A stretch of 36,511 bases of DNA from an uncultured Candidatus Saccharibacteria bacterium (GTDB lineage Bacteria; Patescibacteriota; Minisyncoccia; Phycocordibacterales; JAACPR01): positions 5,124-41,634 of the forward strand of contig CAZRAX010000002.1 of NCBI GenBank assembly GCA_964598245.1. The letters run 5' to 3'. The notes under the pieces are model-generated. The model was not told the origin of the DNA. It did not search any database and saw only the letters and a program-made list of their open reading frames with translations. Positions within the stretch are counted from its first letter, which is position 1. Every line of letters starts with the position of its first letter. Shown here one piece after another: positions 8,635-23,804 of this stretch. The translations under genes were made by a program, and so were the position numbers.

Positions 8635-9417
8635 ATGCAAACAAAAATAAAAGCTAAAAAATCTCTAGGGCAAAACTTTTTAAAATCAAAGAGAATTTTA
8701 GAAGAAATTGTTCGAGTTGGCGAAATTTCTAATCAAGATTTTGTTATTGAAATTGGTCCAGGGAAAGGTTCCTTAACTAAAAAAATACTGGAGACTGGTG
8801 CAAAAGTTTGGGCATTTGAAAAAGATTCCAGACTGATTAATCTATTAGAAGAAAAATTTTTCAAAGAAATTAACAGTGGCCAATTAACGATTTTGGAAAA
8901 GGATATTTTAAATTTTGATTTAGAACAAATTAATAAAAAATATAAATTAATTGCAAATATTCCGTACTACATAACGGGTGAAATTTTAGAAAAGTTTTTA
9001 TCAAGCAATAAACAACCAACTTCTGCTGTTTTGATGGTTCAAAAAGAAGTTGCTGATAGAATTATTGCTCGCGACAACAAAGAAAGCTTACTTTCAATTT
9101 CAGTTAAAATTTATTGCCAACCAAAATACATTAAAAAGGTTCCAGCGAAATTATTTTCACCCCAACCAAAAGTAGATTCAGCAATAATTAAATTAAATAA
9201 AATTTCAAAAGAAAGATTTGAATTAAGTAAAATTTCAGAAAAAGAATTTTTTCAAATGGTTAAAACTGGATTTTCTCATAAAAGAAAATATCTAATTTCA
9301 AATTTAAAAAAAGTGTCACAAAATATCGAACAAAAATTTCAGAAATGCCAAATTAATAATAAAATAAGGGCAGAAAAATTATCTACTGAGGATTGGATTT
9401 GTTTACTAAAAAATTAA
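8635..9417 (+). CDS. rsmA: 16S rRNA (adenine1518/1519-N6)-dimethyltransferase
   Basis: KKSLGQNFL, the SAM-binding EIGPGKGSLT and the NIPYYIT motifs are typical of KsgA/RsmA. Confidence 0.95.
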   Translation: MQTKIKAKKSLGQNFLKSKRILEEIVRVGEISNQDFVIEIGPGKGSLTKKILETGAKVWAFEKDSRLINLLEEKFFKEINSGQLTILEKDILNFDLEQINKKYKLIANIPYYITGEILEKFLSSNKQPTSAVLMVQKEVADRIIARDNKESLLSISVKIYCQPKYIKKVPAKLFSPQPKVDSAIIKLNKISKERFELSKISEKEFFQMVKTGFSHKRKYLISNLKKVSQNIEQKFQKCQINNKIRAEKLSTEDWICLLKN

Positions 9418-9752
9418 GAAGTTCCAAAACCGGGATTGGGACCACCAATTATTCCATTATTTGAAATTGACTTACAGCTATCACCACTATAAATTAAACA
9501 AACACCAGCACCACCATAAGTCCCTAACTGATAAAGACCAGTAGGAGAACCGGAAAGCAATTTCGAGCCTGGACCATAAACTAAACGAAGAGACCCACCA
9601 GATGCATAATCTTGGATGAACAATAAAAGAGTCCCACTACAATTACAGAAAAAGGTTCCCGTTAACCTCCCCCCAAAATAAGCAGCTGAGGCACTATTGA
9701 ATGGTAAAAAAACTGTTGCTAAAAATATTAAACTAAAAATTATTTTTTTCAT
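9414..9752 (-). CDS. small secreted Gly/Cys-containing protein (hypothetical)
   Basis: The 112-aa protein has a signal peptide MKKIIFSLIFLATVFLPFNSASA|AY. The mature part is Gly-rich with 4 Cys. Its stop overlaps the rsmA stop by 4 nt (convergent). Confidence 0.55.
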   Translation of the reverse strand: MKKIIFSLIFLATVFLPFNSASAAYFGGRLTGTFFCNCSGTLLLFIQDYASGGSLRLVYGPGSKLLSGSPTGLYQLGTYGGAGVCLIYSGDSCKSISNNGIIGGPNPGFGTS

Positions 9753-9755
9753 ATT

Positions 9756-10790
9756 TTAATTATTAACAAAATCAATAAATTCTAAATTAGAATGTCCGTT
9801 AGAATTTTTGACTTGAATCATTCCTTCAAAAATTTCTCCCTTACTATTCAAAACTGGTTGACCTTCAACAATAAATTCTAATCTACCCCCTTTTGCTTCA
9901 ACCTCGTAACTACCCAACGCAGTCATAACAGTATTAATATTTTCAAAATTATCTCCCTTAATAATAATTTTATCCCCGTATCTGACTGGTTCTCCGTTTG
10001 GTAAAGCAACATTATCAATTTGTGGGGGGGTTAAATCATCAACAATTTTGACAACAACGGGGTCTGATAAAACATCTCCATTTTTAACATATAAATCATA
10101 TTCTCCTTTATCAAGATTTGGAGTGTCAAAATACATAAAATTAAATTGGCGATCAATATTATCAATAATTTTTTCTTTATTTTCATTTTTGAATAAAATT
10201 TCAGAATCATCGTCAATATTATCAGCAACAATTAACAAATCATCGCCCACCTCAACAACTTCAAAAGAAATAAACTGAATTTTTGACTTATTCTCTTTGA
10301 ATTCTTCTGAATTTGAAATTTCAATTGAAACAGGATCTAAAAGAGCAGGATCTGAATTTGATGATTCAATTAAATCAACAGGTGGGCTTGTCGGCTGAAT
10401 AGCAGGAGCAACCGGTGTTTCAATAACAACAGAGTTTTTAACCAAACCATTAATGAAATTTCTAGTGCTTGGACCAAAATAACCAGTACCACTAGTCAAG
10501 CCAACCGGTATCAAAACTTGCTGACGATATTTATTTTGAAATTTAGCAACCGCTTGTTTGGTTAACTCTCCATAATAGTTTGTTTCTTGACCAACTGAAC
10601 CTACCCCAGAAAGAGAAACCATTGTTGCTGGATCTTGATTCAAAAACTTTTGAAGCATCAGAACATCTTGGCCAGTACTTCCAACATTCAAACTTCTATA
10701 AAAATAAAAAGATTGTGCAGAAACAAAAACAGGAGAAGAAATTAAAATTGATAAAACGATAATAAAAAATAATTTTTGATAATTGTTCAT
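9756..10790 (-). CDS. secreted protein with an N-terminal peptidoglycan-binding (PG_binding_1-like) domain and a beta-rich C-terminal region
   Basis: The signal peptide (LSILISSPVFVSA|QS) is followed by GSTGQDVLMLQKFLN...YYGELTKQAVAKFQNKY, the classical PG-binding repeat. The C-terminus is rich in short beta-strand-like segments (possibly Ig-like). Confidence 0.7.
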   Translation of the reverse strand: MNNYQKLFFIIVLSILISSPVFVSAQSFYFYRSLNVGSTGQDVLMLQKFLNQDPATMVSLSGVGSVGQETNYYGELTKQAVAKFQNKYRQQVLIPVGLTSGTGYFGPSTRNFINGLVKNSVVIETPVAPAIQPTSPPVDLIESSNSDPALLDPVSIEISNSEEFKENKSKIQFISFEVVEVGDDLLIVADNIDDDSEILFKNENKEKIIDNIDRQFNFMYFDTPNLDKGEYDLYVKNGDVLSDPVVVKIVDDLTPPQIDNVALPNGEPVRYGDKIIIKGDNFENINTVMTALGSYEVEAKGGRLEFIVEGQPVLNSKGEIFEGMIQVKNSNGHSNLEFIDFVNN

Positions 10791-10816
10791 TACTTTATAA
10801 TCATATCATTTATTTT

Positions 10817-10825
10817 TGTTATAAT
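10817..10825 (+). promoter_or_regulatory. extended -10 element TGtTATAAT, 6 nt upstream of the first gene of the T4SS-like operon
   Basis: The sequence reads tttTGtTATAATaaaagcATG (ATG at 10832). Confidence 0.55.
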
Positions 10826-10831
10826 AAAAGC

Positions 10832-11767
10832 ATGAAATTACCAAGCCCTCGAGCGTCTCTTATTATTCTTTTGGTTGTCATTATTTCAACAGTAATTACT
10901 GTTGTATTTAGTCAACAAAAAAATAATAGCGACCCAATAATTTCAGCTCCAGATTTACTTGTTGAATCAAAAATCAGCCCTTCTTATTCAGAAAAAGATA
11001 CTGACAAAGATGGACTGTTTGATTGGGAAGAAGTTTTGTGGGGAACAGATCCAGAATTGGCAGATACAGATGGTGACGGGACAAACGATAAAGAAGAAAT
11101 TGACTCGGACAGAAATCCTTTGGTTGCAGGACCCGATGATAAAAATATTTCAGCAGAAGACAAAATTGTAAGTCAATTAGAAGAAAAAGGTTTTGATAAA
11201 GAAGGTCTAACTAGCCAAGTCTCTTCTAGTTTTGCTGAAAATTATTTCAAAACTAGAAATGGTCAAGATTTATCGGAATCACAAAAACAAATTTTAATTC
11301 AAAACATTAGCCAAGAAGCAATAGAAAAAATAAAAATTGAACCAATTTATTCAAATAATTCTTTAAAAACCTTCACTGATGACAAAAACAAACTTATTTT
11401 TTATGCTGACAAAACTTTTTCAATTCAAATTTTGATTCTGGCAGGAGCAATTGAAAATAGTCAAAATCCAAATCATATTAAAATGGGTGACTATATAATC
11501 TCTTTGTCAAACGAACTAATGAGACTAGAAGTTCCACAAGAAATTGTTAGCCAACACACACAACTGGCTAATAATTATTATCAATTAGGATCAATTATCA
11601 AAGATTTTGTAAAAGAAGATGAAGATCCGTTATATGTAATGCTACTTTTAAATATTTATCAAAATATAGAACAAGATATCAACATTTTAAGTAATGAAAT
11701 TAGTAATTTTTTGTCAGAAAATGGTATAATAATTGAAGAAAACCAAATAAAAATAAAGAATGAATAG
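10832..11767 (+). CDS. membrane-anchored protein with thrombospondin-type-3-like Ca-binding Asp repeats (hypothetical)
   Basis: The N-terminal anchor (LIILLVVIISTVITVVF) is followed by DTDKDGLFDWEE, DTDGDGTNDKEE and DSDRNP, which are DxDxDG-type repeats. The C-terminal part looks helical. Confidence 0.6.
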   Translation: MKLPSPRASLIILLVVIISTVITVVFSQQKNNSDPIISAPDLLVESKISPSYSEKDTDKDGLFDWEEVLWGTDPELADTDGDGTNDKEEIDSDRNPLVAGPDDKNISAEDKIVSQLEEKGFDKEGLTSQVSSSFAENYFKTRNGQDLSESQKQILIQNISQEAIEKIKIEPIYSNNSLKTFTDDKNKLIFYADKTFSIQILILAGAIENSQNPNHIKMGDYIISLSNELMRLEVPQEIVSQHTQLANNYYQLGSIIKDFVKEDEDPLYVMLLLNIYQNIEQDINILSNEISNFLSENGIIIEENQIKIKNE

Positions 11768-13037
11768 GTTAAAATTATCTAAAAAAATATTTGCTGTTGT
11801 ATCTCTTTTGGTGTCCCTTGGAATTATTTTTCCACATAGCTTAAATGCTCAAACCTTATCCAATCCCTTAAATGTTACTAGCGATAGTGTTTCAAGAGTT
11901 TCAGATATAAATAGTTTTGATTTAAACCAAAATGTTGAAAGTTGTATGCAAGAGCTGGTAACAGGAAACTTGATTACCTCACTTTCTAATAGTACATTTA
12001 GTGGTTTAACAGATGGTTTGATTAGTAATTTGGTCAGGGGTGTTGGTGGATCTATTAGTGATGTACTCGGTGGAATAGATTTATCTGGTGGTATCAGCAA
12101 CTTAAGAGAATTAAGCCTTGTTAACATTAATCAAGCAATCGGTGCAAACCTTCCAAGTTTTGAATCTGCTCTTGGAACATTAAATAGCACACTTGGTGGT
12201 ATTGGTGGTGGTGCAGGTGGGACATTAGGAAGTATTGGCGGTGTTTTAAGTGGTGGCGGCGAAGTTCCGGTTAACGATGGTGTTGTCCGAACAATCAATC
12301 AACAAATTAGTCAAACAAACCAAGGAATTCTACAAGACACAACAAACTTAACAAATAAAGAAACTGGTGTTGGTGGTATTTCTCTTGATGCTATTGCTGT
12401 ATGTTTGGCCAGCAAAACAATCGGTGGAATATTGGAAGGAACAATTGATTGGATTAATACTGGATTTGATGGTAACCCCGTTTTTGTTGATGACCCAGCC
12501 AAATTTTTTGGAGATATTGCTGATTACGAATTGGGCCTTTTTGTAGATGATTTAACTGGTGGAATTTTGTGTGACCACCTGAGTGTTAGTGTAACAACTG
12601 ATTTGGTCAATAATTATACAAATCAAAAATTCGGCAGACCATCTCGTTGTACGCTCTCTGATGTTTCTGAAAATGTAAGGGCCTTTGCTGACGGTGATTT
12701 TAGTGCTGGAGGTTGGGATGCGTTTTTGGAATACACACAAAATCCGTATAATAATTCTTACGGTGCAAGAATTACAGCACAAAGTGATTTAGATTCTAGA
12801 ATTTCTAGATCTCAGGCCTTGGCCGAATGGGAACTAGACAAGAATGATGGATATCTAAGTATTAGAAATCCTGAAACAGGTGAAATAACAACGCCAGGAA
12901 GTATTGTTAAGTCGCAAGTTGAGAATAGACTTAATGCACCAATCAATCGCCTGACTTTCGCTGATGAGTTTGATGAGATTATGAATTCAATGGTCAATCA
13001 ATTTATAAAAATTTCGATTGGTGAATTGTTTGAATAA
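11760..13037 (+). CDS. secreted Gly-rich protein (hypothetical; T4SS-like cluster component)
   Basis: The signal peptide is LVSLGIIFPHSLNA|QT. Gly-rich stretches (LGGIGGGAGGTLGSIGGVLSGGG) and 4 conserved-looking Cys follow. It overlaps the upstream gene by 8 nt. Confidence 0.6.
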   Translation: MNRLKLSKKIFAVVSLLVSLGIIFPHSLNAQTLSNPLNVTSDSVSRVSDINSFDLNQNVESCMQELVTGNLITSLSNSTFSGLTDGLISNLVRGVGGSISDVLGGIDLSGGISNLRELSLVNINQAIGANLPSFESALGTLNSTLGGIGGGAGGTLGSIGGVLSGGGEVPVNDGVVRTINQQISQTNQGILQDTTNLTNKETGVGGISLDAIAVCLASKTIGGILEGTIDWINTGFDGNPVFVDDPAKFFGDIADYELGLFVDDLTGGILCDHLSVSVTTDLVNNYTNQKFGRPSRCTLSDVSENVRAFADGDFSAGGWDAFLEYTQNPYNNSYGARITAQSDLDSRISRSQALAEWELDKNDGYLSIRNPETGEITTPGSIVKSQVENRLNAPINRLTFADEFDEIMNSMVNQFIKISIGELFE

Positions 13038-13053
13038 TATAAATAAATAAAAA

Positions 13054-15402
13054 ATGTTTTTGGGGGAAAATAAAAAAATAAATAAAAAAATCGGAATAGG
13101 AATTCTTCTTTTCTTTTTTATTTTCTCTGTTTTGGGTGATTTTAATTTTGTAGAAAGTGCAGAACCAGTAACAAGGAACAGAAACGTTGAGGGCGCGGGA
13201 GAATTTGAAAGAGGAGGTATTGTAAACGCACACCAAAAAAAGAGTTCTAATCAAGAAGTAAGTCAGGCAGAAATTGAAAAATTACTTGAAGAAAGAGATG
13301 CGGCACTTAATGAAATTAGAGAGGTGCGACAAGAATCTAATCGCTGTTATCCAGGAGGAAGCGGTACCAGAATCTCTGATGAGTCATGTGAGGAATTAAG
13401 CTACTACTTAACAAAAGTAGCTTCATTAAGAACCCAAGCCAACCAAAAAAATGATGAGGCAAGAAGAATTGCATCTAGAAATGAATCTCTTTGGGAGTGG
13501 TATGTTGGAGCTTTTAATGATTTTTACAACAACCCCAGTGAGGGGGGTTGTGGAGTGCTTGAAGTCGGTTGCTGGTTAGAAAAAGCCACTGAAAATTTCC
13601 TTGGTTTAATTGCAAACTTTTTCATTGGCGCCTCTGGTATGGTTTTATGGTTTTCGGGAATTGTTTTGAATGCCGCAGTCTTTTTTAGTATTGAACAAAT
13701 GTCCAATTTAATAAACGGTGAAGGAGGTGAGGGGATCAGGAATGCCTGGACAATGATCAGAGATTTAATAAATATATTATTTATTTTTGGACTTTTATAC
13801 ATTTCCATAGGAACAATTATTGGTCGTCTTAGTGGCAAGACTAAAAATATGTTGGTTGGAATTATTGCTGCGGCAATTTTGATTAACTTTAGTTTCTTAT
13901 TTACAACTGTTCTGATAGATGTTTCTAATTATTTAACAGTTGAGATGAAAAACCTGCTCGGAGAATGTTCACAAATCGGAGCAGGACCAGAAACCAGCCA
14001 GGGGGCAGGGGCTGGCACAACAGGAGGTTCAATCAAAGAGTCTCTTAATAAATCTAATTACAACAAGGGAATAAGTAATTGTTTTGTCGATTCAGTTAAA
14101 ATCCAAACAGCCTTTAATCCAGAAACAGAAGGGGGTATTGCAAATGTTGTCAACGCCTCTCAATCAACAACAGGAAAGGTTATAAAAATACTAATTGGAG
14201 GAATTATGGGATCGGTATTCCTAATCCTTACTGCTGTTGTTTTCTTGGCATTAGCAATATTGTTATTTATCAGATTTATTTTATTAATCTTCTTAATTAT
14301 TACTTCACCTGCGATGTTTTTGGGAATGATCTTACCTAATTTTACAGAAATTTCTAAAACATGGTTTAAAACCCTACAAAACCAATTAATCTGGGCGCCT
14401 CTGGCTTTCCTTTTCTTGTTTATCAGTCTTACAATTGCAAGGAGTATGAGCCTTGTTGGGTCAAGCGGAGACTTATCCGGTACAGTTGCGGGAGGAGCAG
14501 AAAACATATCTGTTATAATTAATTATCTTTTAGTTATTGGTTTTATGCTTGCTTCAATATTGATTGCCAAAAAAACTGGTGCAGCAGGAGCTGACTGGTC
14601 AACCCAAAAAGCAGGTAACGTAGTCTTTGGTGGACTTGGTAAGATCGGTAGAAACACAGTCGGTAGAGCCGCATCTAGGGCCGCAGAAAATATGAAGGGG
14701 ACAGGAATGGTGTCTCGGCTTAGCAAAGCAGGACTAAAAAATATTGGCAATAGCACATTTGATGCTAGAAACAGTACGGCTGTTTCTGCTGGATTTTCTG
14801 GTATTGGTAAAGCAACAGGAGTAAACATAGATACAGGAAAAGGTTCCAAGAGTGGCTTTACAAAACTAAACCAAGAAAAAGTTAAAAAATACAAAGAAGA
14901 GGCAAAGGAATTTGGTGAACTAAGTAGATCTGAAAAAATAAAGATTACCGAAAATAGAGGAAAAATAAATACAAAATATGAAAATGAACTAAGTGGAATC
15001 AAAAATGCCCAAGGCAGAGTTACAAATAGTGAAAATAGTCTAAAGTCTATTAAAAAACAGATGAAAAAAGCCAAAAAGACTGACAGAGCAGAATACGATC
15101 GATTATCTGTTGAAAAAGAAAGATTTGAAGAGGGAATAGATAGAGACAAGGAATTTATTAAGCAACAAAAGGCTGTAATAGAAAATGACGAACTTTCAAA
15201 AGAAATCAGGGACACTGAAAAGAAAGCCGAAAAACGACAAGAAGACTTTCTAAACAATGTTCTAAGTAAGGTTTATAGACCGGCCGGCAGAGACGCCAGA
15301 AGAGAAATATTAGAAGAAAAAGAGAAAAAAAAGAAACAGGGCTCTGTAGAAAAAATTACCCAGGAAGTTATAGCTGGTATAAAAAAAGATGATGATAAAT
15401 AA
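13054..15402 (+). CDS. VirB6/TrbL-like polytopic membrane protein with a long Lys/Glu-rich coiled-coil C-terminal tail
   Basis: The 782-aa protein has about 6-7 hydrophobic helices between residues ~180 and 500 (for example GLIANFFIGASGMVLWFSGIVLNAAVFF, VFLILTAVVFLALAILLFIRFILLIFLIITSPAMFLGMILP and LIWAPLAFLFLFISLTIA). A ~270-aa charged tail follows. The size, topology and position immediately upstream of VirB3/VirB4-like genes resemble PrgH/TcpH/ConG. Confidence 0.6.
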   Translation: MFLGENKKINKKIGIGILLFFFIFSVLGDFNFVESAEPVTRNRNVEGAGEFERGGIVNAHQKKSSNQEVSQAEIEKLLEERDAALNEIREVRQESNRCYPGGSGTRISDESCEELSYYLTKVASLRTQANQKNDEARRIASRNESLWEWYVGAFNDFYNNPSEGGCGVLEVGCWLEKATENFLGLIANFFIGASGMVLWFSGIVLNAAVFFSIEQMSNLINGEGGEGIRNAWTMIRDLINILFIFGLLYISIGTIIGRLSGKTKNMLVGIIAAAILINFSFLFTTVLIDVSNYLTVEMKNLLGECSQIGAGPETSQGAGAGTTGGSIKESLNKSNYNKGISNCFVDSVKIQTAFNPETEGGIANVVNASQSTTGKVIKILIGGIMGSVFLILTAVVFLALAILLFIRFILLIFLIITSPAMFLGMILPNFTEISKTWFKTLQNQLIWAPLAFLFLFISLTIARSMSLVGSSGDLSGTVAGGAENISVIINYLLVIGFMLASILIAKKTGAAGADWSTQKAGNVVFGGLGKIGRNTVGRAASRAAENMKGTGMVSRLSKAGLKNIGNSTFDARNSTAVSAGFSGIGKATGVNIDTGKGSKSGFTKLNQEKVKKYKEEAKEFGELSRSEKIKITENRGKINTKYENELSGIKNAQGRVTNSENSLKSIKKQMKKAKKTDRAEYDRLSVEKERFEEGIDRDKEFIKQQKAVIENDELSKEIRDTEKKAEKRQEDFLNNVLSKVYRPAGRDARREILEEKEKKKKQGSVEKITQEVIAGIKKDDDK

Positions 15403-15414
15403 AAAATAATTATT

Positions 15415-16440
15415 ATGGGAGAAACAAAATTACAAAAGTTAATAAATGAAAACTATCAAAAACTACCACCCATAGTTCAGAATTTCGTTACCGAATCAGA
15501 TTGGCTAAAAATTCTTGAGGAAATTTTACAAGATAATAGTTTTTCTTTAGAACAAAATGATTCTATAGAAATGGAAACATTGCTAATGTTAATTGGTGTT
15601 TCTAACCCCAAAGAATACGCTCTGAACATTAAAAAAGAAGCTAATCTAACAATAGATGAAGCAATTTCAGTTGCTGAAGAAGTAAATGATAAAATTTATC
15701 AAAAACTTATAAAAAAAATAATTACAGAGTCAGAAAAACAAGCCGGTTTACCTGAAAATCCTTTGAAAGAAATATTGGGGGAAGACGAAGAAATTTTGAC
15801 AATGTTTCCCCAAATAAATTTAGATTTAGAAGAGGACGAAGAAGACCAAAGAAAAGAATTGGTTGGAGAATTAAGCCAAGATATTCAAATCGACAGTAAC
15901 GAAGAGGTTGAGGATGAATTAATGATTATTGATCAAGAAACAAAAACCCCAGTGCTAGAAAACATTCCTACAAAACCACAACAACAAAGTGAATTACTCC
16001 CAGAAGAAAATAAAAAAGAACTTGACCAAAACAAAGTCCCACCAAACAAGGTACCTCTAAGAAAAGACCAGATCCCAAACCCAAGAATTATCCAAAGTTC
16101 TTTTACTAGAAAAGAAAATAGCTTGCCAGATTTACAACCACTCAGAACGCTAGAAAAAGATTCTGAAAGGTTTGGCCATCCAATTTCTGAAAAACTTTCA
16201 AAGGAAACCACCCAAAGAGCAAAGTCAGAAGAAGCATCAATAAAACAAGACGAGGCTACTCAAAAAACAGAGCCGTCGGCATCTATTGTTGAATCAGTAC
16301 CAAAATCACCTGCTTCAGAGAAACCGGCAGTGCCAGAACCAACCGCTCCAGAGAAACAATTTGTTGAATCAATGCCAGAGAAGCCCGCCCCAGAGCAAAC
16401 ACAAGCAGGAACAGACCCTTATAGAGAACCAATAGAATAA
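15415..16440 (+). CDS. acidic Pro/Glu-rich, largely low-complexity protein (hypothetical; no TM segment)
   Basis: In the 341-aa protein only the first ~110 aa look globular. The rest is E/D/P/K-rich (EEDEEDQRKE and PASEKPAVPEPTAPEKQFVESMPEKPAPEQ). Confidence 0.55.
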   Translation: MGETKLQKLINENYQKLPPIVQNFVTESDWLKILEEILQDNSFSLEQNDSIEMETLLMLIGVSNPKEYALNIKKEANLTIDEAISVAEEVNDKIYQKLIKKIITESEKQAGLPENPLKEILGEDEEILTMFPQINLDLEEDEEDQRKELVGELSQDIQIDSNEEVEDELMIIDQETKTPVLENIPTKPQQQSELLPEENKKELDQNKVPPNKVPLRKDQIPNPRIIQSSFTRKENSLPDLQPLRTLEKDSERFGHPISEKLSKETTQRAKSEEASIKQDEATQKTEPSASIVESVPKSPASEKPAVPEPTAPEKQFVESMPEKPAPEQTQAGTDPYREPIE

Positions 16441-16444
16441 AATC

Positions 16445-16864
16445 ATGAGATATCAAGTACCACAATTTATAGAAGTAGAAGATCGTCTTTTTGGGCCACT
16501 AACCCTAAAGCAATTTCTTTATGTTGCTGGCGGAGCAGCAGCTGGATTTATTATTTGGTCTATTATTCCTATTAAAATTATTGCTGTTATTATAGCTCTT
16601 CCTGTTGTTGCTTTTTTCCTGGCTTTAGCTTTTTACAAATATAATGGTCGTCCATTTGTTGTGACAGTTGAAAACTCTGTTAAATATTTCTTGGGTGACA
16701 AACTTTATATTTGGAAAAAAGAAGATAAAAAAATTGATCCCAATCAAACACCTGGAACAGATGTGTTTAGTACAGGCCTTGGGATTGGTGTTCCAAAACT
16801 TTCCGATAGTAATCTAAAAAAAATTTCCTTTGAATTAGATATTAATGAGAATTTAGAAGAATAA
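16445..16864 (+). CDS. PrgI-family (VirB3-like) small membrane protein
   Basis: MRYQVPQFIEVEDRLFGPLTLKQFLYVAGGAAAGFIIWSIIPIKIIAVIIALPVVAFFLALAF is the characteristic N-terminal motif plus two-TM hairpin of PrgI/TcpE-type VirB3 analogues. The gene lies directly upstream of VirB4. Confidence 0.7.
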   Translation: MRYQVPQFIEVEDRLFGPLTLKQFLYVAGGAAAGFIIWSIIPIKIIAVIIALPVVAFFLALAFYKYNGRPFVVTVENSVKYFLGDKLYIWKKEDKKIDPNQTPGTDVFSTGLGIGVPKLSDSNLKKISFELDINENLEE

Positions 16865-16866
16865 TT

Positions 16867-16875
16867 TGTTATAAT
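16867..16875 (+). promoter_or_regulatory. extended -10 element TGtTATAAT, 7 nt upstream of the 16883 ATG (internal operon promoter candidate)
   Basis: The sequence reads aatttTGtTATAATatttaaaATG. Confidence 0.5.
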
Positions 16876-16882
16876 ATTTAAA

Positions 16883-17503
16883 ATGTCAACAAAAGCAAGT
16901 CAAGAATTCATACCAATAAAAGAAGTCCGCGATGGAGTAATCATTTTGAAAGATGGTTCTATGCGAGCTATTGTTATGACCTCTTCCCTAAACTTTGATT
17001 TAAAATCAATAGACGAACAAGAATCAATTATTTTTGAATTCCAAAACTTCTTAAACTCTTTAGATTTTAGTGTTCAAATCAGCATTCAATCTAGAAGGCT
17101 AGACATTCGACCATATGTTTCAATGTTAGAAGATCGTCTAAAACAACAAACAAATGATCTAATGAAAGTTCAAATTAGAGAGTATATTCAATTTATTAGA
17201 ACTTTTACTGAAAACACTAATATTATGACAAAAAGTTTCTTTATTGTTGTTCCTTATTCACCAGCTAAAATTAATGTTGGTAAGGGCGGTATTTTTAGCA
17301 AAAAAAACAAAGATCTTGAAAAACAAAAGATAGAAAATTTTGAAGAAAACAAAAGCCAATTAGAACAAAGACTAGCAATTGTCGAGCAGGGAATTACTAG
17401 ATCAGGAATTAGAGCCGCCAGATTAGGAACAGAAGAATCAATTGAAATTTTTTATAAGCTATTTAATCCGGGAGATGTCGAAAGACCAATACCGCAACAA
17501 TAA
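16883..17503 (+). CDS. VirB4 N-terminal-domain-like protein (appears to be the detached N-terminus of a Gram-positive-type VirB4)
   Basis: SQEFIPIKEVRDGVIILKDGSMRAIVMTSSLNFDLKSIDEQESIIFEFQNFLNSLDFSVQISIQS matches, from my memory of the family, the extreme N-terminus of PrgJ/TrsE/Orf16-type VirB4 proteins. The ORF ends in TAA TAA, 8 nt before the next ORF, which is in a different frame. Confidence 0.5.
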   Translation: MSTKASQEFIPIKEVRDGVIILKDGSMRAIVMTSSLNFDLKSIDEQESIIFEFQNFLNSLDFSVQISIQSRRLDIRPYVSMLEDRLKQQTNDLMKVQIREYIQFIRTFTENTNIMTKSFFIVVPYSPAKINVGKGGIFSKKNKDLEKQKIENFEENKSQLEQRLAIVEQGITRSGIRAARLGTEESIEIFYKLFNPGDVERPIPQQ

Positions 17504-17511
17504 TAAACAAT

Positions 17512-19398
17512 ATGGGAATTTTTAATTTTTTAAAAAAAGAAGATAAGACACCAGATATTACATCTTTTATGCCTCAACAAATTTATGAGTCTGGTATTTT
17601 GGAATTAAAAGATGTTATTGCTCCTTCGGCTTTCAAGGTTTCTCCAAAAGAAATTAACCTTGGTGACAAGGTCGCCAGAAGTTTTTTTGTTATTTCTTAT
17701 CCAAGATACTTAACTGAAAACTGGTTTTCTCCAATTATTAATCTTGAAAGAGTTTTTGACATTTCAATTTTTGTTCACCCCATTGAAACCTCAACAATAA
17801 TGAGAAAATTCCAAAAAAAGGTTGCAGAAATTCAAAGTCAAATTTCCACCAGGGAAGAAAAAGGTCTTGTTCGCGACCCCAAACTTGATACAGCATACAG
17901 AGACCTTGAAACACTTAGAGACCAGCTTCAACAAGCACAAGAAAAAATCTTTGATGTTGGTATTTATATTACAATTTATGCTGACAACAGCGATGAATTA
18001 GATAAATTTGAATCAGAAATGAAATCTATTTTAGAGTCTAAGTTAGTTTATGTAAAACCAGCAATTTTTCAACAAGAAGAAGGCTTTAAATCGGTTATAC
18101 CACTAGCAACAGACTTATTAAATGTTCATTCAAAATTAAACTCTGAACCTCTTTCTTCTGTTTTTCCTTTTATTTCTTTTGAATTAACAGATGACAAGGG
18201 AATATTGTTTGGTATAAACAGGCACAATTCTGGATTAGTTTTGTTTGATAGGTTTAGTTTACCAAACTATAATTCAGTTGTTTTTGCAAAATCTGGTGCT
18301 GGTAAATCATACATGACAAAACTTGAAATTCTACGATCTCTAATGTTTGACGTTGATGTTATTGTTATTGACCCAGAAAGAGAATATGAACAAATGGCAG
18401 AAGTAACAGGTGGAAGATTTTTTAATATTTCTTTAACTTCAGAACACCATATTAATCCTTTTGATTTACCAAAAATTGGTGAAGATGAAGAGCCAGCAGA
18501 TGTTTTACGATCAAATATCATAACACTAGTTGGACTATTTAGGGTTATGCTTGGTGGTCTTACGCCAGAAGAAGATTCTATTATTGATCGAGCAATTACT
18601 GAAACATACGCCCTAAAAGACATTACTCCTGAATCAGATTTTTCTAACGTTCAAGCACCTTTGTTGTCTGATTTTGAACTTGTTTTAGGAGGAATTGAGG
18701 GCGCCGAAGGGTTGGTTCAAAAATTATCAAAATATACCAAAGGAACATGGTCTGGATTTATTAACAAACCAACCAATGTTGATATTAATAAAAAATTCGT
18801 TGTCTTTTCTCTTCGTGATATGGAAGACGAATTAAAACAAGTGGCGACATATATTATCACCAACTATATTTGGACAGCAATTAGAAAAGAAAGAAAAAAG
18901 AGAATCATGGTTGTTGACGAGGCATGGTGGATGATGAAGTCAGATGACACAGCATCATTTTTGTTTGGTTTAGCCAAAAGAGGTCGTAAATATTACCTAG
19001 GAATTACTACTATTACTCAAGATGTTGAAGACTTTTTAAGATCCCCTTATGGTGGTCCAATTATTACCAACTCTTCTATTCAAATGCTGATGAAACAGTC
19101 CCCATCATCAATTGGTTTAGTTCAAAAAACTTTTAATTTAACGGATTCTGAAAAGAATTTGTTACTTCAATCAGATGTCGGGGAAGGGATATTCTTTGCG
19201 GGGGCCAAGAGAGTTGCCTTAAAAGTTATTGCCTCATACACCGAAGATCAAATTATTACTTCTGACCCAGCCCAATTACTATCAATTAAAAAAGCAAAAC
19301 AAGAACTTCAACAAAAAAATCAATCTAACTCAAACGAAGAAGATTCTTATAACCAATCAAAACTTTCAGAGGCACAAAAAACTCTTAACGAGTTTTAG
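17512..19398 (+). CDS. virB4: VirB4-family type IV secretion ATPase
   Basis: The VirB4 middle region (IAPSAFKVSPKEINLGDKVARSFFVISYPRYLTENWFSPII) is followed by Walker A FAKSGAGKSY and Walker B RIMVVDEAWWMM. Further on come GRKYYLGITTITQDVEDF and EGIFFAG. Confidence 0.9.
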   Translation: MGIFNFLKKEDKTPDITSFMPQQIYESGILELKDVIAPSAFKVSPKEINLGDKVARSFFVISYPRYLTENWFSPIINLERVFDISIFVHPIETSTIMRKFQKKVAEIQSQISTREEKGLVRDPKLDTAYRDLETLRDQLQQAQEKIFDVGIYITIYADNSDELDKFESEMKSILESKLVYVKPAIFQQEEGFKSVIPLATDLLNVHSKLNSEPLSSVFPFISFELTDDKGILFGINRHNSGLVLFDRFSLPNYNSVVFAKSGAGKSYMTKLEILRSLMFDVDVIVIDPEREYEQMAEVTGGRFFNISLTSEHHINPFDLPKIGEDEEPADVLRSNIITLVGLFRVMLGGLTPEEDSIIDRAITETYALKDITPESDFSNVQAPLLSDFELVLGGIEGAEGLVQKLSKYTKGTWSGFINKPTNVDINKKFVVFSLRDMEDELKQVATYIITNYIWTAIRKERKKRIMVVDEAWWMMKSDDTASFLFGLAKRGRKYYLGITTITQDVEDFLRSPYGGPIITNSSIQMLMKQSPSSIGLVQKTFNLTDSEKNLLLQSDVGEGIFFAGAKRVALKVIASYTEDQIITSDPAQLLSIKKAKQELQQKNQSNSNEEDSYNQSKLSEAQKTLNEF

Positions 19399-19401
19399 AA
19401 A

Positions 19402-19782
19402 ATGGAAAATCAAAAAATAAATTATCGAATAGGAAAAATTACGGGGTGGTTAATGATTTCTTGCGCCATCCTTTACGATTTTTTAGAATTTAGCGTTGAT
19501 TGGATACCCGTTCTTGGACAAGGTATTTCTTTTTTCATAGATTTTATTGCTATTTTGCATTTTTCTTTTTGGTTTATTCTTTTGGGAGTTAATTTGATAA
19601 AACCACAAAATATTTTACGTTTTTGGACTCCACAAATAATAGAACTTTTACCAATTCCGCTAATAGATTTTTTCTTAACCACCCTTGCTGTTTTTCTTAC
19701 TATAAAAATGTCTAGGATCGAGGACCGGTTGGGAGTTGGCATTATTAAAAAACCAAAACCCAAATTAAGGCGCAGAAGTTAA
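19402..19782 (+). CDS. small 3-TM membrane protein with a basic C-terminus (hypothetical)
   Basis: The 126-aa protein has helices ITGWLMISCAILYDFLEF, ISFFIDFIAILHFSFWFILLGV and LPIPLIDFFLTTLAVFLTI. The tail is KKPKPKLRRRS. Confidence 0.55.
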   Translation: MENQKINYRIGKITGWLMISCAILYDFLEFSVDWIPVLGQGISFFIDFIAILHFSFWFILLGVNLIKPQNILRFWTPQIIELLPIPLIDFFLTTLAVFLTIKMSRIEDRLGVGIIKKPKPKLRRRS

Positions 19783-19783
19783 T

Positions 19784-20833
19784 ATGATTGATTACAAGAT
19801 GAATAATTTTGATATAATTAAAATAATGAAAAAATATTTATTTTTAATAATAATTTTTTTAATATTACCACTAATATTACCCCTGGGGGCGTCTTCTCAA
19901 ACCCAAATAGAAGAACAGCTTTCAATTACTTTTTCACCACAATATCCTGGGCCAAATGAATTTGTTGATATTGATATTAATAGCTATCAAACAGATTTAG
20001 ACAAATCTGAAATTAGTTTTTATGTTAATGGTACATTTAATAGTGGTGGGGTAGGCGTTAAAAGTTTTTCTTTTTTAACTGGTGAGGTTGGTGAGACATC
20101 AAACATTTTAATTAGAATTGATAAACCAAACGGATCAAGAACTGAAAAAAGATATTCGATAACACCAGGAGAAATAAATTTATACTACGAACCACAAACC
20201 TATACACCACCATTTTACAAAGGACGATCAGAATTTAGTAATCAATCTGATTTAAAAATTTTTGCTTTGGCTAATTTTGTCGACAACCAGGGGAACGCAA
20301 TACCCAAAAATGAAATCGTTTATACTTGGAAAATAAATGGTGAGATAAAGCAACGAGAATCTGGGGTTGGGAGAGATGTTTATTATTACAGATCTAATTT
20401 AATTCCAGAACCAGTTCAAATTATTTTAGAAGCCTCTCCTATAAATTCACAACAAATCTCTAGAGTTTTTGGGTCTATTACACCATCAGAACCGTTAATT
20501 TTAATCTATGAAAAAAATCCAATTTATGGGACAATTTTCAGTCAAGACATAAAAGAGGGTTCAATTTCTGGGAGAGAAGAAATAGAAGTAACTGCTATAC
20601 CTTACTTTTTTGATGAAGATATTTTATCGATAGGAGAATTTGAGTGGTTTTTAAATGGAAAGGTTTCAGATTTTTTTGATCTAAATAATATTATTTTTAG
20701 AAGGGTTGATAATAATCCAAGTAATAACAATGTATCAGTTGAAATAATTAACCCAAGCAAGATTATGCAATCAAAAAAATATTCTTTTGACTTAAATTTT
20801 GATCAAAACAATGATAAATCTTTTGAATTTTAA
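19784..20833 (+). CDS. secreted or membrane-anchored beta-rich protein (hypothetical; possible VirB8/PrgL-position component)
   Basis: The N-terminal hydrophobic segment is YLFLIIIFLILPLILPLGASSQ, and the remainder is beta-strand-like. The start is uncertain (Met1 at 19784 or MKKYLF at about 19826). Confidence 0.5.
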   Translation: MIDYKMNNFDIIKIMKKYLFLIIIFLILPLILPLGASSQTQIEEQLSITFSPQYPGPNEFVDIDINSYQTDLDKSEISFYVNGTFNSGGVGVKSFSFLTGEVGETSNILIRIDKPNGSRTEKRYSITPGEINLYYEPQTYTPPFYKGRSEFSNQSDLKIFALANFVDNQGNAIPKNEIVYTWKINGEIKQRESGVGRDVYYYRSNLIPEPVQIILEASPINSQQISRVFGSITPSEPLILIYEKNPIYGTIFSQDIKEGSISGREEIEVTAIPYFFDEDILSIGEFEWFLNGKVSDFFDLNNIIFRRVDNNPSNNNVSVEIINPSKIMQSKKYSFDLNFDQNNDKSFEF

Positions 20834-20835
20834 TT

Positions 20836-22518
20836 ATGGAAAAAAATACTAAAAAAACAATATTTTCTTTTTTCGTGATAGGACTCTTTCTTTTATTTAT
20901 TGCTGGTACATTTAATAATCAACCAGAAATAATTTCTGAATCTCAAAGAAGTTTATTGGTTGCACAATCATCATATCAACCCATCTCTGGTATCGAACTA
21001 AATGTTAATTCTGAAAAAACAGGTTTTGCTCAAATTTTAACAACAATTTTTGGTTGGGGAATTGCAATCGCAATTGTTTTGGCAATTTTAGTTATTGTTT
21101 GGGGTGGAATTCAATACATGACAACCGATGCTTTTAGTGAAAAGACTGACGGTAAGGAAAAAATCAAGGGGGCAGTTGGAGGATTAATTTTAGCTCTAGT
21201 CTCTTGGTTAATTTTAAATACAATAAATCCGAGAATTTTGGAAGATAATTTTTTAACAAAAACAAAAGAGGCAAATCAAAGTCAGTCTGGCACCCCCACA
21301 AACACCAGTGGCAGTGGTGCTACGGGGACACAAACCAGTCCAACCACAGGAACACCCGGACAAGATCTCCAAAACCCAACACAGGTTAAGCAGAATGCCT
21401 CTTCTGGTATTACTTTTGATCAAAACACCCAAGATTATATAGATAGCAATGGTTTAAAGACAAACACACTTAATACCATAAATCATCTGGGTGACAGTAT
21501 TGGTAGTTCTGAAAATCAAGTTGTTGTTTCTGCAGGAACAACAGATTCTTTTTCAATAAATTATTCTGATAATTCTGACAGGAGTGATTCTATAGATAAT
21601 TACTTTGTTGAAAGTTTTCAACAAGAATACGCAATTGATGGTGTAGAAGATATTCAAACAGAAACACCCTATGTTATAACAATTGATGGTGTAGAAAATG
21701 AGGTTATAAAAAATAGTTCTGGTTGGTTTATCCAAACAACAGACTTTAACACCACAGGACAGGTCGCACCGCAAGAAACGACAGAAGGGGCTGATGATGT
21801 CCAAACACCAGAAACACCACCAACAAACAGCAGTTTTACTCCAGAAAACACAAGTGAGGAGGATGGTGCACCAGAGACACCAACAAACAACAGCCCTGAA
21901 CCCGTCCAGAATCCAGAAGAAAACCAAGACCAAAGCCAGGGAGTCGATTCAGATAGTGACAAAGCAACACTTAGTGAAATAAAAAGTGAGAGTGATTTTA
22001 TTATTAGGCAAGAATTGGCCTCTGAAAATATTTTTGTGGAAAACCAAGAAGCAAACTTGGTTAATCTTTCTGGTGATTTAAAAAGTGTTTTAACTGAAAT
22101 TAGAAATTTTTGTTGTGGACTTGTAACACTCAGTACCGGAGAAATAACATACGGAACATCTTTTAATGTTACAACAATAGATTCAAGCCAAAATTCTTTT
22201 TTGATAGAAGGGGGGGTAGTTGATGAAAGAAATTATTCAAGCAGTAATTGGCGACCAATAACAGAAAATCTTTCTGAAAATTTATACCCAAACGAGTACT
22301 TAATTGGTTCTTCTAAAAAATGTTCTATTTTCAACCCCTTTTGTAATTTTTTTGGGAAAAATATAACAACAAATAAAAAGTATGAAAGCCTAGAAAAAAA
22401 GGGGGTCGATTACCGAGATCTAAAAAGCGGAGAAGTATACCGCGGTGAAATGTCCGGTGTTAATTTTGAAGCAACATATGGTGAAAACAGTTGGTTTATT
22501 CAAATAAAAAATGTTTAA
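20836..22518 (+). CDS. VirB2/TrbC-like T4SS pilin hairpin fused to a long T/S/P-rich linker and a C-terminal extracellular domain
   Basis: A signal/anchor segment (IFSFFVIGLFLLFIAGTF) precedes FAQILTTIFGWGIAIAIVLAILVIVWGGIQYMTTDAFSEKTDGKEKIKGAVGGLILALVSWLILNTINPRIL. That stretch is two TM helices joined by a short basic loop, as in T4SS pilins. Next come the linker QSGTPTNTSGSGATGTQTSPTTGTPGQ, an acidic/Pro stretch and a Cys-containing C-terminal domain. The motif WFIQ occurs twice (SGWFIQTTDF and NSWFIQIKNV). Confidence 0.55.
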   Translation: MEKNTKKTIFSFFVIGLFLLFIAGTFNNQPEIISESQRSLLVAQSSYQPISGIELNVNSEKTGFAQILTTIFGWGIAIAIVLAILVIVWGGIQYMTTDAFSEKTDGKEKIKGAVGGLILALVSWLILNTINPRILEDNFLTKTKEANQSQSGTPTNTSGSGATGTQTSPTTGTPGQDLQNPTQVKQNASSGITFDQNTQDYIDSNGLKTNTLNTINHLGDSIGSSENQVVVSAGTTDSFSINYSDNSDRSDSIDNYFVESFQQEYAIDGVEDIQTETPYVITIDGVENEVIKNSSGWFIQTTDFNTTGQVAPQETTEGADDVQTPETPPTNSSFTPENTSEEDGAPETPTNNSPEPVQNPEENQDQSQGVDSDSDKATLSEIKSESDFIIRQELASENIFVENQEANLVNLSGDLKSVLTEIRNFCCGLVTLSTGEITYGTSFNVTTIDSSQNSFLIEGGVVDERNYSSSNWRPITENLSENLYPNEYLIGSSKKCSIFNPFCNFFGKNITTNKKYESLEKKGVDYRDLKSGEVYRGEMSGVNFEATYGENSWFIQIKNV

Positions 22519-22520
22519 TT

Positions 22521-22529
22521 TGTTATAAT
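22521..22529 (+). promoter_or_regulatory. extended -10 element TGtTATAAT, 6 nt upstream of the 22536 ATG (internal promoter candidate)
   Basis: The sequence reads aatttTGtTATAATtaaaaaATG. Confidence 0.5.
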
Positions 22530-22535
22530 TAAAAA

Positions 22536-23804
22536 ATGGATAAAAATACAGCAAAAAAAATTTTAATACTCGTTATTGTTCTGGCCGTTGGTGTTGTTTC
22601 ATATTTTTTGTTTTTTCAAAACAATGAAAATGAGCCGGGGGGCGAGGTAACAATCCCAGATCAACCCAATAGTAACTTTTTCCCTGATTCAGAACCAATA
22701 TCAGATACCGAACAAGAACACCCGCAATTACAAGAAAAATTTAATATTCCAGCACTAAGACAAATTTCTGAGAATCCTGTTTCTGGCTTTATCATTTTTG
22801 ATAAAGAAACCGTCTTAGAAAAAAATAGTACCTCAACAGACGAAGAGTCGGTGGTATCAGAAACGGTTTATCGTTTTGTAAATAGGTCAAACGGTAACAT
22901 TTTAGAGACAACTTCTAGAAACAGTACCATTAAAAGATTAACTAACGACACAATTCCCAAAACACAAAGGGCATATTTTAGTAATTCTGGGGATCATGTT
23001 GTTTATCAATATTTAAACGAAAACGATGTGGTGGAAACCATCTTTATTAGTCTTATTACCAAAGATGCCCCAGCAACAACAAGTGATTCTTTTATTGAAA
23101 TAAATAAAAACAAACTTCCAAGAAATATAGAAGATATTATTATTTCTAAAGAAAATAATGTTTTATACACAAGAGAGTCAGGAGGTTTTTTATCTGGTTT
23201 TTATTTTAATGTAGATAATTTTGTTAATCAACAAAAAATATTTGATTTAGAAAAAAAAGAATTGGTTTTTTCTTGGCTAGACAACAACAATTTTTATGCT
23301 GGAACCAAACCATCTCTTAACCAGAAAAATTATTTATTTAAATTAAGTATTAATGATAATGATTTAAAAATGGTTTCTGATTTTAATTCTGGTTTTAGTT
23401 ATCTATTAAGCCCAGAAACAAATTCCATTTTGTATTCAGAAAACGAAGGTGGTTTAATTAATGTTTTCAAAAAAGATCTTTCAACAAACGAGGTTGTTGA
23501 TTTAAAAATTAGCACTATTGTTGATGAAAAGTGTGTTTGGTCAAAAAAAGAGGAGGACACTGCTTATTGCGCTGTGCCGCTCTTAACAATTGGTTTTGGT
23601 TATCCAAACATTTGGTATCAGGGTCAAGTTTCTTTTGTCGATTCTCTATACAAAATTGATACAAATTCTGGTGAAAAAACTGCCCTTACTGGTCTAAGCG
23701 GTGAATTTGATATAATTAATTTACAAGTTTCTGAAAATGATGAGTATCTTTCATTTATAAATAAAAAAGATTTAACTCTTTGGAGTCTAGATATTAAAAA
23801 ATAA
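22536..23804 (+). CDS. membrane-anchored beta-rich protein, possibly beta-propeller (PD40/TolB-like) (hypothetical)
   Basis: The N-terminal anchor is ILILVIVLAVGVVSYFLFF. Recurrent strand-like motifs (YFSNSGDHVVYQY, SPETNSILYSEN and SENDEYLSFINKKDLTLWSL) resemble propeller blades. The stop codon abuts the yidC stop with no gap. Confidence 0.45.
   Translation: MDKNTAKKILILVIVLAVGVVSYFLFFQNNENEPGGEVTIPDQPNSNFFPDSEPISDTEQEHPQLQEKFNIPALRQISENPVSGFIIFDKETVLEKNSTSTDEESVVSETVYRFVNRSNGNILETTSRNSTIKRLTNDTIPKTQRAYFSNSGDHVVYQYLNENDVVETIFISLITKDAPATTSDSFIEINKNKLPRNIEDIIISKENNVLYTRESGGFLSGFYFNVDNFVNQQKIFDLEKKELVFSWLDNNNFYAGTKPSLNQKNYLFKLSINDNDLKMVSDFNSGFSYLLSPETNSILYSENEGGLINVFKKDLSTNEVVDLKISTIVDEKCVWSKKEEDTAYCAVPLLTIGFGYPNIWYQGQVSFVDSLYKIDTNSGEKTALTGLSGEFDIINLQVSENDEYLSFINKKDLTLWSLDIKK

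Follow-up and report, generated by a model that had tools for sequence, protein, structure and literature searches.

A 36,511-nucleotide (nt) stretch of contig CAZRAX010000002.1 (assembly GCA_964598245.1; hereafter the window) from an uncultured bacterium of the Patescibacteria carries a block of 11 co-directional genes at 10832–23804, which is almost certainly a domesticated type IV secretion system (T4SS) of the Patescibacteria kind. We lean slightly towards a VirB2 filament for host contact as its primary output, and the two parts taken together, a domesticated Patescibacteria-type T4SS that builds such a filament, form a likely account of the locus. A large part of bacterial diversity belongs to the Patescibacteria, whose cultivated members are all obligate epibionts or parasites. 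To our knowledge, theirs is the only T4SS known to be essential for the growth of its owner. It has been called the superfamily's “most exciting newcomer” (2025 review, PMC12857230). An earlier reading of the letters without database searches (the sequence-only reading) had named the unassigned members as the part most likely to be undescribed. The system is not new, as systems of this kind were described between 2023 and 2025 (PMC10633639, PMC12102498, PMC12857230), and the open part is the five or six unnamed accessory proteins. What the window offers is a clean Paceibacteria example, and it narrows the conserved partners of the VirB3/4/6/2 core that still lack a name to a short list. These partners are relevant to how ultrasmall parasites breach or hold their hosts, and what interest remains is in the accessory families without a name, above all the large family of the protein encoded at 11760.

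A conserved gene block beside the replication origin

The window is AT-rich (~31% GC). The interval between the core genes ksgA (rsmA; 8635–9417, + strand) and yidC (23805–24554, − strand; 60KD_IMP domain) holds two divergent genes (9414 and 9756) followed by the block, whose 11 open reading frames (ORFs) start at 10832, 11760, 13054, 15415, 16445, 16883, 17512, 19402, 19784, 20836 and 22536. Every one is on the + strand, and the junctions are either one 8-nt overlap or gaps of 1–18 nt, as the sequence-only reading had described. Beyond yidC lie rnpA (24544–24864, −; Ribonuclease_P domain), rpmH (24864–24998, −; an L34 ORF), dnaA (25098–26447, +; Bac_DnaA domains) and dnaN (26584–27753), with three DnaA-box-like sites at 26543–26622. 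The dnaA start is 1.3 kb from the end of the block, and the placement between core genes that had been proposed from the sequence is borne out.

Scanning one genome per species with VirB4 gave 80 related loci (L001–L080), all from metagenome-assembled genomes (MAGs). Those with informative names are of the Paceibacteria/Parcubacteria type (Taylor-, Campbell-, Wolfe-, Zambryski- and Kaiserbacteria). A comparison of synteny across relatives had been proposed as a check, and in about 40 loci with full 10-kb flanks the same order is kept: pcrA-ksgA-(9756)-10832-11760-VirB6-(15415)-PrgI-TrsD-VirB4-(19402)-19784-pilin-22536-yidC(−)-rnpA-dnaA-dnaN. Because it recurs in about 40 other species, the pattern of the block is far past chance. 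A ksgA homologue takes the same position, with pcrA upstream, in 45 of the 80 loci.

Conservation within and around the block was compared over the 28 loci that hold all genes. Median identity to the window proteins was 75% for VirB4, 61% for TrsD, 60% for DnaA, 52% for PcrA, 45% for DnaN, 40% for YidC and 27–30% for the exported accessory proteins. VirB4 (72–78% identity) exceeded DnaA (57–70%) in all 28 comparable species, with the VirB4 values inflated somewhat by the selection of the 80 loci through VirB4 similarity. The gradient inside this one operon is very steep, from 72–78% for VirB4 to 27–30% for the extracellular products. As judged from these identities, the cytoplasmic motor is strongly constrained and the surface parts evolve fast. 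The same 72–78% identity of VirB4 to the proteins of the 80 Paceibacteria/Parcubacteria MAGs, against 26% to PrgJ of plasmid pCF10, is consistent with membership of the Patescibacteria VirB4 clade.

That clade was defined in an analysis of 3,035 Patescibacteria genomes, in which VirB4 proteins formed a monophyletic group nested in MPF_FATA (Quinonero-Coronel et al. 2025, PMC12102498). TrsD, PrgI/VirB3, VirB6 and VirB2 pilins were widespread near virB4, relaxases were near absent, and in Paceibacteria and Microgenomatia virB4 lay beside dnaA, dnaN, rnpA, ksgA and rpmH (PMC12102498). Transposon sequencing in S. epibionticum found a cluster at the start of the chromosome, SEML1_0006-0019, to be essential for epibiotic growth (Wang et al. 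2023, PMC10633639). Our locus has in common with the Patescibacteria-clade systems and with the S. epibionticum cluster a VirB4 with a separate TrsD, a PrgI/VirB3, a probable VirB6-like protein and a VirB2-type pilin. It also shares with them the lack of a relaxase or coupling protein at the locus and a chromosomal position beside dnaA/dnaN/rnpA/rpmH/ksgA. An exported Ig-like (immunoglobulin-like) accessory protein adjoins the cluster in S. epibionticum (SEML1_0005, PEGA/Ig-like) as it does here. The Saccharimonadia cluster differs in that it encodes six short pilins in an array, two large proteins of the VirB6 type, a lysozyme and an NTF2-like protein (VirB8-type). The Paceibacteria locus in the window has a single long pilin-fusion gene, no lysozyme or NTF2-like protein recognised in the block, and an accessory set of its own (a TSP3 protein, the 11760 family, a three-transmembrane protein, an Ig-repeat protein and a TolB-like propeller).

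Components of the secretion engine

The PrgI/VirB3, VirB4 and VirB2/TrbC pilin assignments made from the sequence all score above curated Pfam or NCBIfam thresholds, which is what “cut-off” means throughout; matches under it are sub-threshold. The PrgI/VirB3-like protein (16445–16864, +) has two transmembrane segments and matches PF12666 with an E-value of 8.9e-11 and 42.6 bits against a cut-off of 27. Homologues are present in 77 of the 80 loci at ~49% identity. In known systems PrgI/VirB3 is the membrane anchor for VirB4.

The VirB4 ATPase core, the energising subunit, is encoded at 17512–19398 (+) and matches the CD1110-family model NF045971 (E-value 1.1e-110, 371 bits against a cut-off of 325), with further matches to P-loop_TraG, AAA_10 and DUF87. 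Walker A (GAGKS) and Walker B (VVDEAW) can be read in the translation, so the ATPase motifs of a T4SS are intact. The protein aligns with pCF10 PrgJ at 26% identity (E-value 6e-39) over PrgJ residues 215–773 only, and therefore lacks the N-terminal domain. That domain appears as a gene of its own immediately upstream (16883–17503, +), encoding a TrsD/TraD-type protein that matches NF041427 at positions 20–200 of 201, the VirB4_CagE profile at positions 6–175 and CD1110 at positions 2–122. The relation of TrsD to the VirB4 N-terminal domain is drawn solely from these NCBIfam profiles, BLASTP of TrsD against PrgJ giving no significant alignment.

The sequence-only reading had described one VirB4 in two ORFs. 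Both ORFs are real, and the assignment is corrected here to a TrsD gene followed by a VirB4 gene. The two are separate ORFs, never fused, in 78 of 78 related loci, and their relative frame takes all three possible offsets across these loci; for this reason we regard them as a natural gene pair and not as the product of a frameshift. A frameshifted or pseudogenised VirB4 is thereby ruled out. Systems of the pGO1 type also have these two genes apart, and among the T4SS components of Patescibacteria TrsD is reported to be the most abundant (PMC12102498).

The VirB2/TrbC-type pilin (20836–22518, +) comprises a signal peptide and a two-helix hairpin within amino acids (aa) 1–130 and a long C-terminal extension. 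Only aa 64–130 match PF18895 T4SS_pilin (E-value 1e-7, 32.4 bits against a cut-off of 26.6). The protein also matches the Mbov_0395 pilin-like model NF045849 (E-value 5e-5) and has three hydrophobic segments. Its extension of 430 aa is not conserved; in it, a Thr/Pro/Gln-rich linker leads to a C-terminal domain that contains Cys. The pilin domain was detected in 63 of the 80 loci, where alignments cover ~16% of the query and no high-scoring segment pair starts past aa 140. Orthologues range from 130 to 555 aa, and nearly all have a non-conserved extension after the second helix. The pilin is mostly single-copy (59 loci), and two or three pilin-domain genes occur in four of the 63 loci (L010, L013, L040 and L060; region ~13.9–15.9 kb). 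These multi-pilin loci are a small-scale version of the pilin arrays of Saccharimonadia and Microgenomatia.

The gene at 13054–15402 (+) encodes a polytopic protein with eight hydrophobic segments, ~7 of them transmembrane, and a long Lys/Glu-rich C-terminal tail. It had been called VirB6/TrbL-like, the least secure call of the sequence-only reading. The window protein itself gave no Pfam or NCBIfam match at E≤0.1, and the call finds indirect support in its orthologues and in a structural model. TrbL (PF04610) is matched under cut-off by seven of 41 orthologues (best E-value 6e-5). The closest database homologue (P0001, 48% identical) likewise matches TrbL under cut-off, over positions 49–210 of 215 (E-value 5e-4). 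An AlphaFold2 (AF2) model of the membrane core (pLDDT 63, pTM 0.58) was searched with Foldseek against 350,542 PDB chains, and the R388 stalk complex (TrwJ/VirB5-TrwI/VirB6) supplied the chains at ranks 1–4, 7, 9 and 10. The probabilities of these matches are 0.75–1.00, their TM-scores are low (0.34–0.43), and no other target exceeded a probability of 0.5. A profile search of the PDB with the VirB6 family picked up nothing but coiled-coil noise of low complexity, arising from the Lys/Glu tail. Together, the orthologue matches and the model make a VirB6-like identity probable. Local hhalign comparisons of the family alignments with single pCF10 Prg proteins proved too insensitive, the positive control of the PrgI family against PrgI reaching 10% probability, and were dropped.

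Origin of the system and the question of mobility

The order VirB6-VirB3-VirB4, with a probable VirB6-like protein in first place, and the CD1110-family VirB4 are shared with MPF_FATA systems (prgH-prgI-prgJ of pCF10 and trsC-trsD-trsE of pGO1/pSK41). The parallel with prgH-prgI-prgJ noted from the sequence agrees with the pCF10 annotation and with the alignment of VirB4 to PrgJ. A separate TrsD gene is found in the pGO1 subclass as it is here (PMC12102498). The MPF_FATA systems differ in being carried on plasmids or integrative and conjugative elements (ICEs), with a type IV coupling protein (T4CP; PcfC), a relaxase (PcfG), the PrgK hydrolase, the VirB8-like PrgL and LPXTG adhesins, and in having no VirB2 pilin. 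The window locus has none of those features and does have a pilin. The Patescibacteria lineage goes back to conjugation machinery of monoderms (MPF_FATA) and no longer has the module of relaxase and coupling protein.

A rival reading is that the block is itself an ICE, another mobile element or a remnant of one, inserted near the origin. Its VirB4 is of the CD1110/CTn2 conjugative type, its gene order resembles that of pCF10, and a tyrosine-recombinase ORF that the sequence-only reading had overlooked lies at the window edge (2–700, −; 232 aa). This ORF has SAM-like N-terminal domains, and its Phage_integrase catalytic domain is cut short, with only positions 5–99 of 172 matched ahead of a stop codon at the edge. 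It may be a truncated XerC/D-type gene or the result of a frameshift. It is 10 kb from the block, beyond comM, an M23/LysM peptidase, pcrA and ksgA.

The remaining evidence opposes mobility. The earlier statement that the window lacks a relaxase, a T4CP, VirB11 and VirB7/9/10 stood, as no domain of a relaxase, T4CP (VirD4/TcpA), MOB protein, VirB11 or VirB7/9/10 was found in the main ORFs across the 36.5-kb window; only its denial of an integrase needs the amendment just described. No excisionase was found among these ORFs, no tRNA target occurs in the window, and the search for att sites around the block found no flanking direct repeats. The GC content of the block is similar to that of the rest of the window, as had been claimed. 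The block occupies the same site between the same core genes in ~40 species, with a VirB4 that is more conserved than DnaA, and for 99.3% of the VirB4 proteins of the clade the closest relative is in the same class (PMC12102498). We consider an ICE or other mobile element very improbable and reject it on the fixed site in ~40 species, the lack of a tRNA or flanking repeats, and the truncated, distant recombinase. On the sequence comparisons, the locus appears to be a core chromosomal, vertically inherited, origin-proximal one and not an ICE, and the domesticated apparatus envisaged earlier is upheld by the lack of DNA-processing genes and att repeats and by the shared site.

Domesticated T4SSs are known elsewhere. 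Bordetella Ptl, Brucella VirB, Helicobacter ComB and archaeal Ced resemble the window locus in being chromosomal and without a relaxase or a locus-encoded coupling protein. Ced apart, they differ in being diderm systems with VirB7-10, and their functions are known (toxin export, effector delivery and DNA uptake). VirB4 is the only membership feature of these systems that the window locus shares. None of the 13 proteins (the 11 of the block plus 9414 and 9756) has a VirB8, VirB7/9/10 or VirB11 domain, which are features of diderm MPF_T systems.

Accessory and exported proteins

A signal or membrane anchor was recognised in nine of the 13 products. Pfam and NCBIfam scans agree with the earlier statement that the accessory genes belong to no nameable family, and the unassigned members are all conserved, in sequence or at least in position.

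A large family is that of 11760–13037 (+), whose secreted product varies in its Gly-rich N-terminal part and has a conserved core of ~220 aa (aa 205–425) that contains Cys. It is present in 52 of the 80 loci and gave no match in Pfam, NCBIfam or PDB sequences; profile searches of the PDB were also empty. A phmmer search with the core against 1.84 billion cluster representatives returned 4,203 matches at E≤1e-3 and 2,707 at E≤1e-10, in proteins of 194–1,170 aa with the core at either end. The family has at least 2,700 clusters at 50% identity, and no Pfam model. Extra modules in its members include discoidin F5/8-C domains (6/41 orthologues), surface Ig-like domains (2/41) and GH5 cellulase (two of ten long members). 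An AF2 model from a 12-sequence alignment was unusable (pLDDT 40). Its gene directly precedes that of VirB6, and this position and the modularity suggest a VirB5-like role for the protein, a candidate adhesin of the surface or tip.

A sequence link of this family to VirB5 was also considered. DUF4141 was matched by two of 41 full-length orthologues (E-value 1.3e-5) and was absent when the conserved core of 27 members was scanned. DUF4141 is presumably linked to TraI of CTnDOT. TraI has been reported to be homologous to VirB5 (PMC4027160). The link was set aside, given that it was not reproduced on the conserved core and that the PDB profile searches were empty.

The first gene of the block (10832–11767, +) encodes an N-terminal membrane anchor, thrombospondin-type-3 (calcium-binding) repeats that match TSP3_bac (PF18884) just under cut-off (E-value 6e-5), and a C-terminal domain without a known family. 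Weak matches to the TSP3 proteins CglD/MtsD were also seen. A homologue occupies the same position in 25 of the 80 loci (~28% identity, 95% coverage). At 19784–20833 (+) a membrane-anchored extracellular protein (anchor aa 9–27) carries three tandem repeats of ~100 aa, each with a W-x-x-NG motif that is retained in the consensus of the family alignment (A2). It occurs in 73 of the 80 loci (~28% identity, 91% coverage). Pfam and NCBIfam gave no match for the window protein, and the family profile weakly matches Ig-like phage Hoc and decoration proteins (E-values 0.018–0.3), so these repeats are probably Ig-like. The last gene (22536–23804, +) encodes another membrane-anchored extracellular protein (anchor aa 3–21) with a conserved Cys pair, found in 59 of the 80 loci (~27% identity, 94–97% coverage). 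Its family profile matches 12 TolB chains (E-values 0.0014–0.01), and individual members match DPPIV_N (three) and PD40 (two). These matches are weak but consistent, and the protein is probably a TolB/PD40-like beta-propeller.

Two further members are a small membrane protein and a soluble protein. The small protein at 19402–19782 (+) has three transmembrane segments, belongs to an unnamed family and carries the conserved motifs D26, WF..GV and E-x-IP...LP-x-W. In 48 of 68 loci the interval from VirB4 to the Ig-repeat gene contains a multi-transmembrane ORF of 110–340 aa, and these ORFs align as one family (A8) that matches no consistent Pfam family. The product of 15415–16440 (+) is a soluble acidic protein (21% Asp+Glu) without a transmembrane segment or a Pfam/NCBIfam match, with a structured N-terminal part of ~110 aa and a disordered Pro/Glu-rich tail. 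Sequence homologues were found in just eight loci. The interval between VirB6 and PrgI holds an acidic ORF of 160–600 aa without transmembrane segments in 52 of 55 loci, so that the slot is conserved.

Of the two divergent genes, the one at 9756–10790 (−) encodes a secreted protein with a signal or anchor at aa 4–22, a PG_binding_1 domain (PF01471, E-value 9e-5, at cut-off) and a beta-rich C-terminal part. It recurs in 11 of the 80 loci at the same place and on the same strand and may be a wall-associated accessory. The gene at 9414–9752 (−) encodes a small secreted Gly/Cys-rich protein of 112 aa with an N-terminal hydrophobic signal, four Cys and no Pfam/NCBIfam match. A homologue was present in just five of the 80 loci, and a part for it in the system is doubtful.

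Proposed function

The locus encodes a cytoplasmic-membrane engine, comprising the VirB4 ATPase, TrsD, the VirB3/PrgI anchor and the probable VirB6-like protein, together with a VirB2-type pilin. In the R388 model of pilus biogenesis, VirB2 is pulled out of the membrane by a complex of VirB4, VirB3 and VirB6, and VirB6 is the platform for its polymerisation. The components present here are this VirB2-extracting and polymerising subset, and a pilus- or tube-building machine is therefore the most economical reading. In terms of the R388 VirB/Trw system of MPF_T (7O3V, 8RT9), B2, B3, B4 and B6 correspond to the part that builds the pilus on a VirB6/VirB5 stalk, and the secreted protein 11760 is encoded just upstream of VirB6, where virB5 is placed. 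The window locus differs from MPF_T in lacking the VirB7/9/10 outer-membrane core, VirB8, VirB11 and VirD4, and in the 430-aa extension of its pilin; the DUF4141 matches that would tie 11760 to VirB5 were not reproduced on its conserved core.

We hypothesize that VirB4, VirB3 and VirB6 extract VirB2 and polymerise it on VirB6 into an extracellular filament or tube, which would carry the variable C-terminal pilin domain on its outside. In place of VirB7-10 or VirB8, the exported proteins 10832, 11760, 19784, 22536 and 19402 would guide this structure across the wall and fasten it to the host; among them, the 11760 family has exchangeable modules of the carbohydrate-binding or GH5 type. Tubes that reach the host in a cultured member of the phylum (bioRxiv 10.64898/2026.06.21.733656) and the essential role of the S. 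epibionticum cluster in epibiotic growth (PMC10633639) speak for this account. The apparatus would serve an obligate epibiotic or parasitic lifestyle by way of host contact and the transfer of macromolecules across the host envelope, either of proteins outwards or of host macromolecules inwards. A more specific proposal, which we offer tentatively and consider rather doubtful, is that 10832, 11760, 19402, 19784, 22536 and possibly 15415 together form an undescribed wall-spanning, host-binding module that lets a monoderm T4SS build and aim a VirB2 pilus. The 11760 family would then take the functional part of VirB5, its proteins being adhesins of the tip or stalk whose exchangeable lectin, Ig and GH5 modules set host range, and the pilin extension would decorate the filament.

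Several points weigh against a host-contact filament built by a domesticated T4SS, beyond the selection of loci by VirB4 similarity noted above. The genome could encode a coupling protein at another site, and VirD4-like genes do lie far from virB4 in many genomes (PMC12102498). The probable VirB6 assignment rests on sub-threshold sequence matches and a model of medium confidence (pLDDT 63, TM-scores 0.34–0.43). Neither a VirB8-like nor a VirB1-like protein was recognised among the genes of the block. An extension of 430 aa on a VirB2 pilin may be incompatible with canonical pilus packing. The function is carried over by analogy from Saccharimonadia, the only structural model of 11760 failed, and roles for 10832, 11760, 15415, 19402, 19784 and 22536 are read from topology, weak fold hints and co-occurrence.

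Two other outputs can be envisaged for the same core. The locus could be a dedicated machine for nucleic-acid import, comparable to Helicobacter ComB or Sulfolobales Ced, that feeds a cell unable to make nucleotides. The comM-type ATPase gene 5.5 kb upstream of the block and the PilB-type ATPase in the window, both confirmed by their domains, had already led the sequence-only reading to suggest DNA uptake, and no export-type coupling protein is encoded at the locus. VirB4 also matches CedB, weakly and far under cut-off (E-value 1.8e-9), and in class ABY1 the T4SS co-localises with comF, recG and radA (PMC12102498). In a 2026 preprint, tubular structures, possibly T4SS pili, reach into the host of a cultured Patescibacteria parasite that takes up and feeds on host RNA. 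Its authors leave the mechanism open and call the uptake route unresolved (bioRxiv 10.64898/2026.06.21.733656). Evidence from S. epibionticum runs counter to import as the main role. Competence there depends on ComEC and type IV pili, and deletion of comEC abolishes competence and not viability, while the T4SS is essential (PMC12857230). Because cells without comEC stay viable, the essential role of the T4SS is not ComEC-dependent DNA uptake, and the earlier suggestion is weak. The window has no ComB-like VirB7/9/10 proteins, and the adjacency of comM and PilB may merely reflect a small genome. We regard import as unlikely.

The second is export of effectors without a coupling protein, in the manner of Bordetella Ptl or Brucella VirB, with proteins passing into or onto the host and the pilin acting only as a channel component. 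Protein-secreting T4SSs that lack a T4CP do exist (PMC12102498; PMC12857230), and protein export was suggested for the S. epibionticum system by Wang et al. (PMC10633639). The GH5 and lectin-type modules of the 11760 family could act on host envelopes, and most block products carry signals of the Sec type, which would fit a two-step route like that of Ptl. Against this reading, neither an effector nor a chaperone or secretion signal was identified, and the candidate cargo consists of conserved, structural-looking members of the operon. At the sequence level export and pilus assembly look the same. We judge a pure exporter to be quite unlikely, and retain the VirB2 filament for host contact as the preferred output.

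Neighbouring genes and other features

An M23 peptidase with two LysM domains is encoded at 5315–6382 (−), 4.4 kb upstream of the block. M23 and LysM domains are frequent among VirB1-type candidates of Patescibacteria (PMC12102498), and this peptidase could be the wall hydrolase that the block lacks. Directly upstream of the comM/YifB-type Mg-chelatase-like ATPase gene (3814–5313, +) lies an ORF for a DksA/TraR-type C4 zinc finger (3396–3764, +), and the ORF before it (2368–3372, 334 aa) matched no family in the domain scans. The YebC/PmpR-family ORF at 32529–33059 (−) is just 176 aa long, its best stretch covering positions 1–138 of a model of ~240 positions, and it may be a shortened or split gene.

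Scans of the window with Rfam models and for tRNAs found nothing. Promoter and terminator scans were uninformative in this AT-rich DNA, in which 78 promoter-like sites were counted where 64 were expected, and 16 terminator-like sites where eight were expected. The 17-nt sequence TTAATTGGTGTTTCTAA occurs at 2312–2328, 15589–15605 and 22300–22316, as two exact copies and one with two mismatches (88% identity), in unrelated genes, and is probably a chance match in AT-rich DNA. The ORF at 838–1332 (+) contains a near-tandem DNA repeat at 1120–1269 with four 66-nt copies, one pair of which is 92% identical. This repeat encodes a Gly-zipper-like hydrophobic motif with weak matches to Yae1_N and to the GxxxG motif of Romo1.

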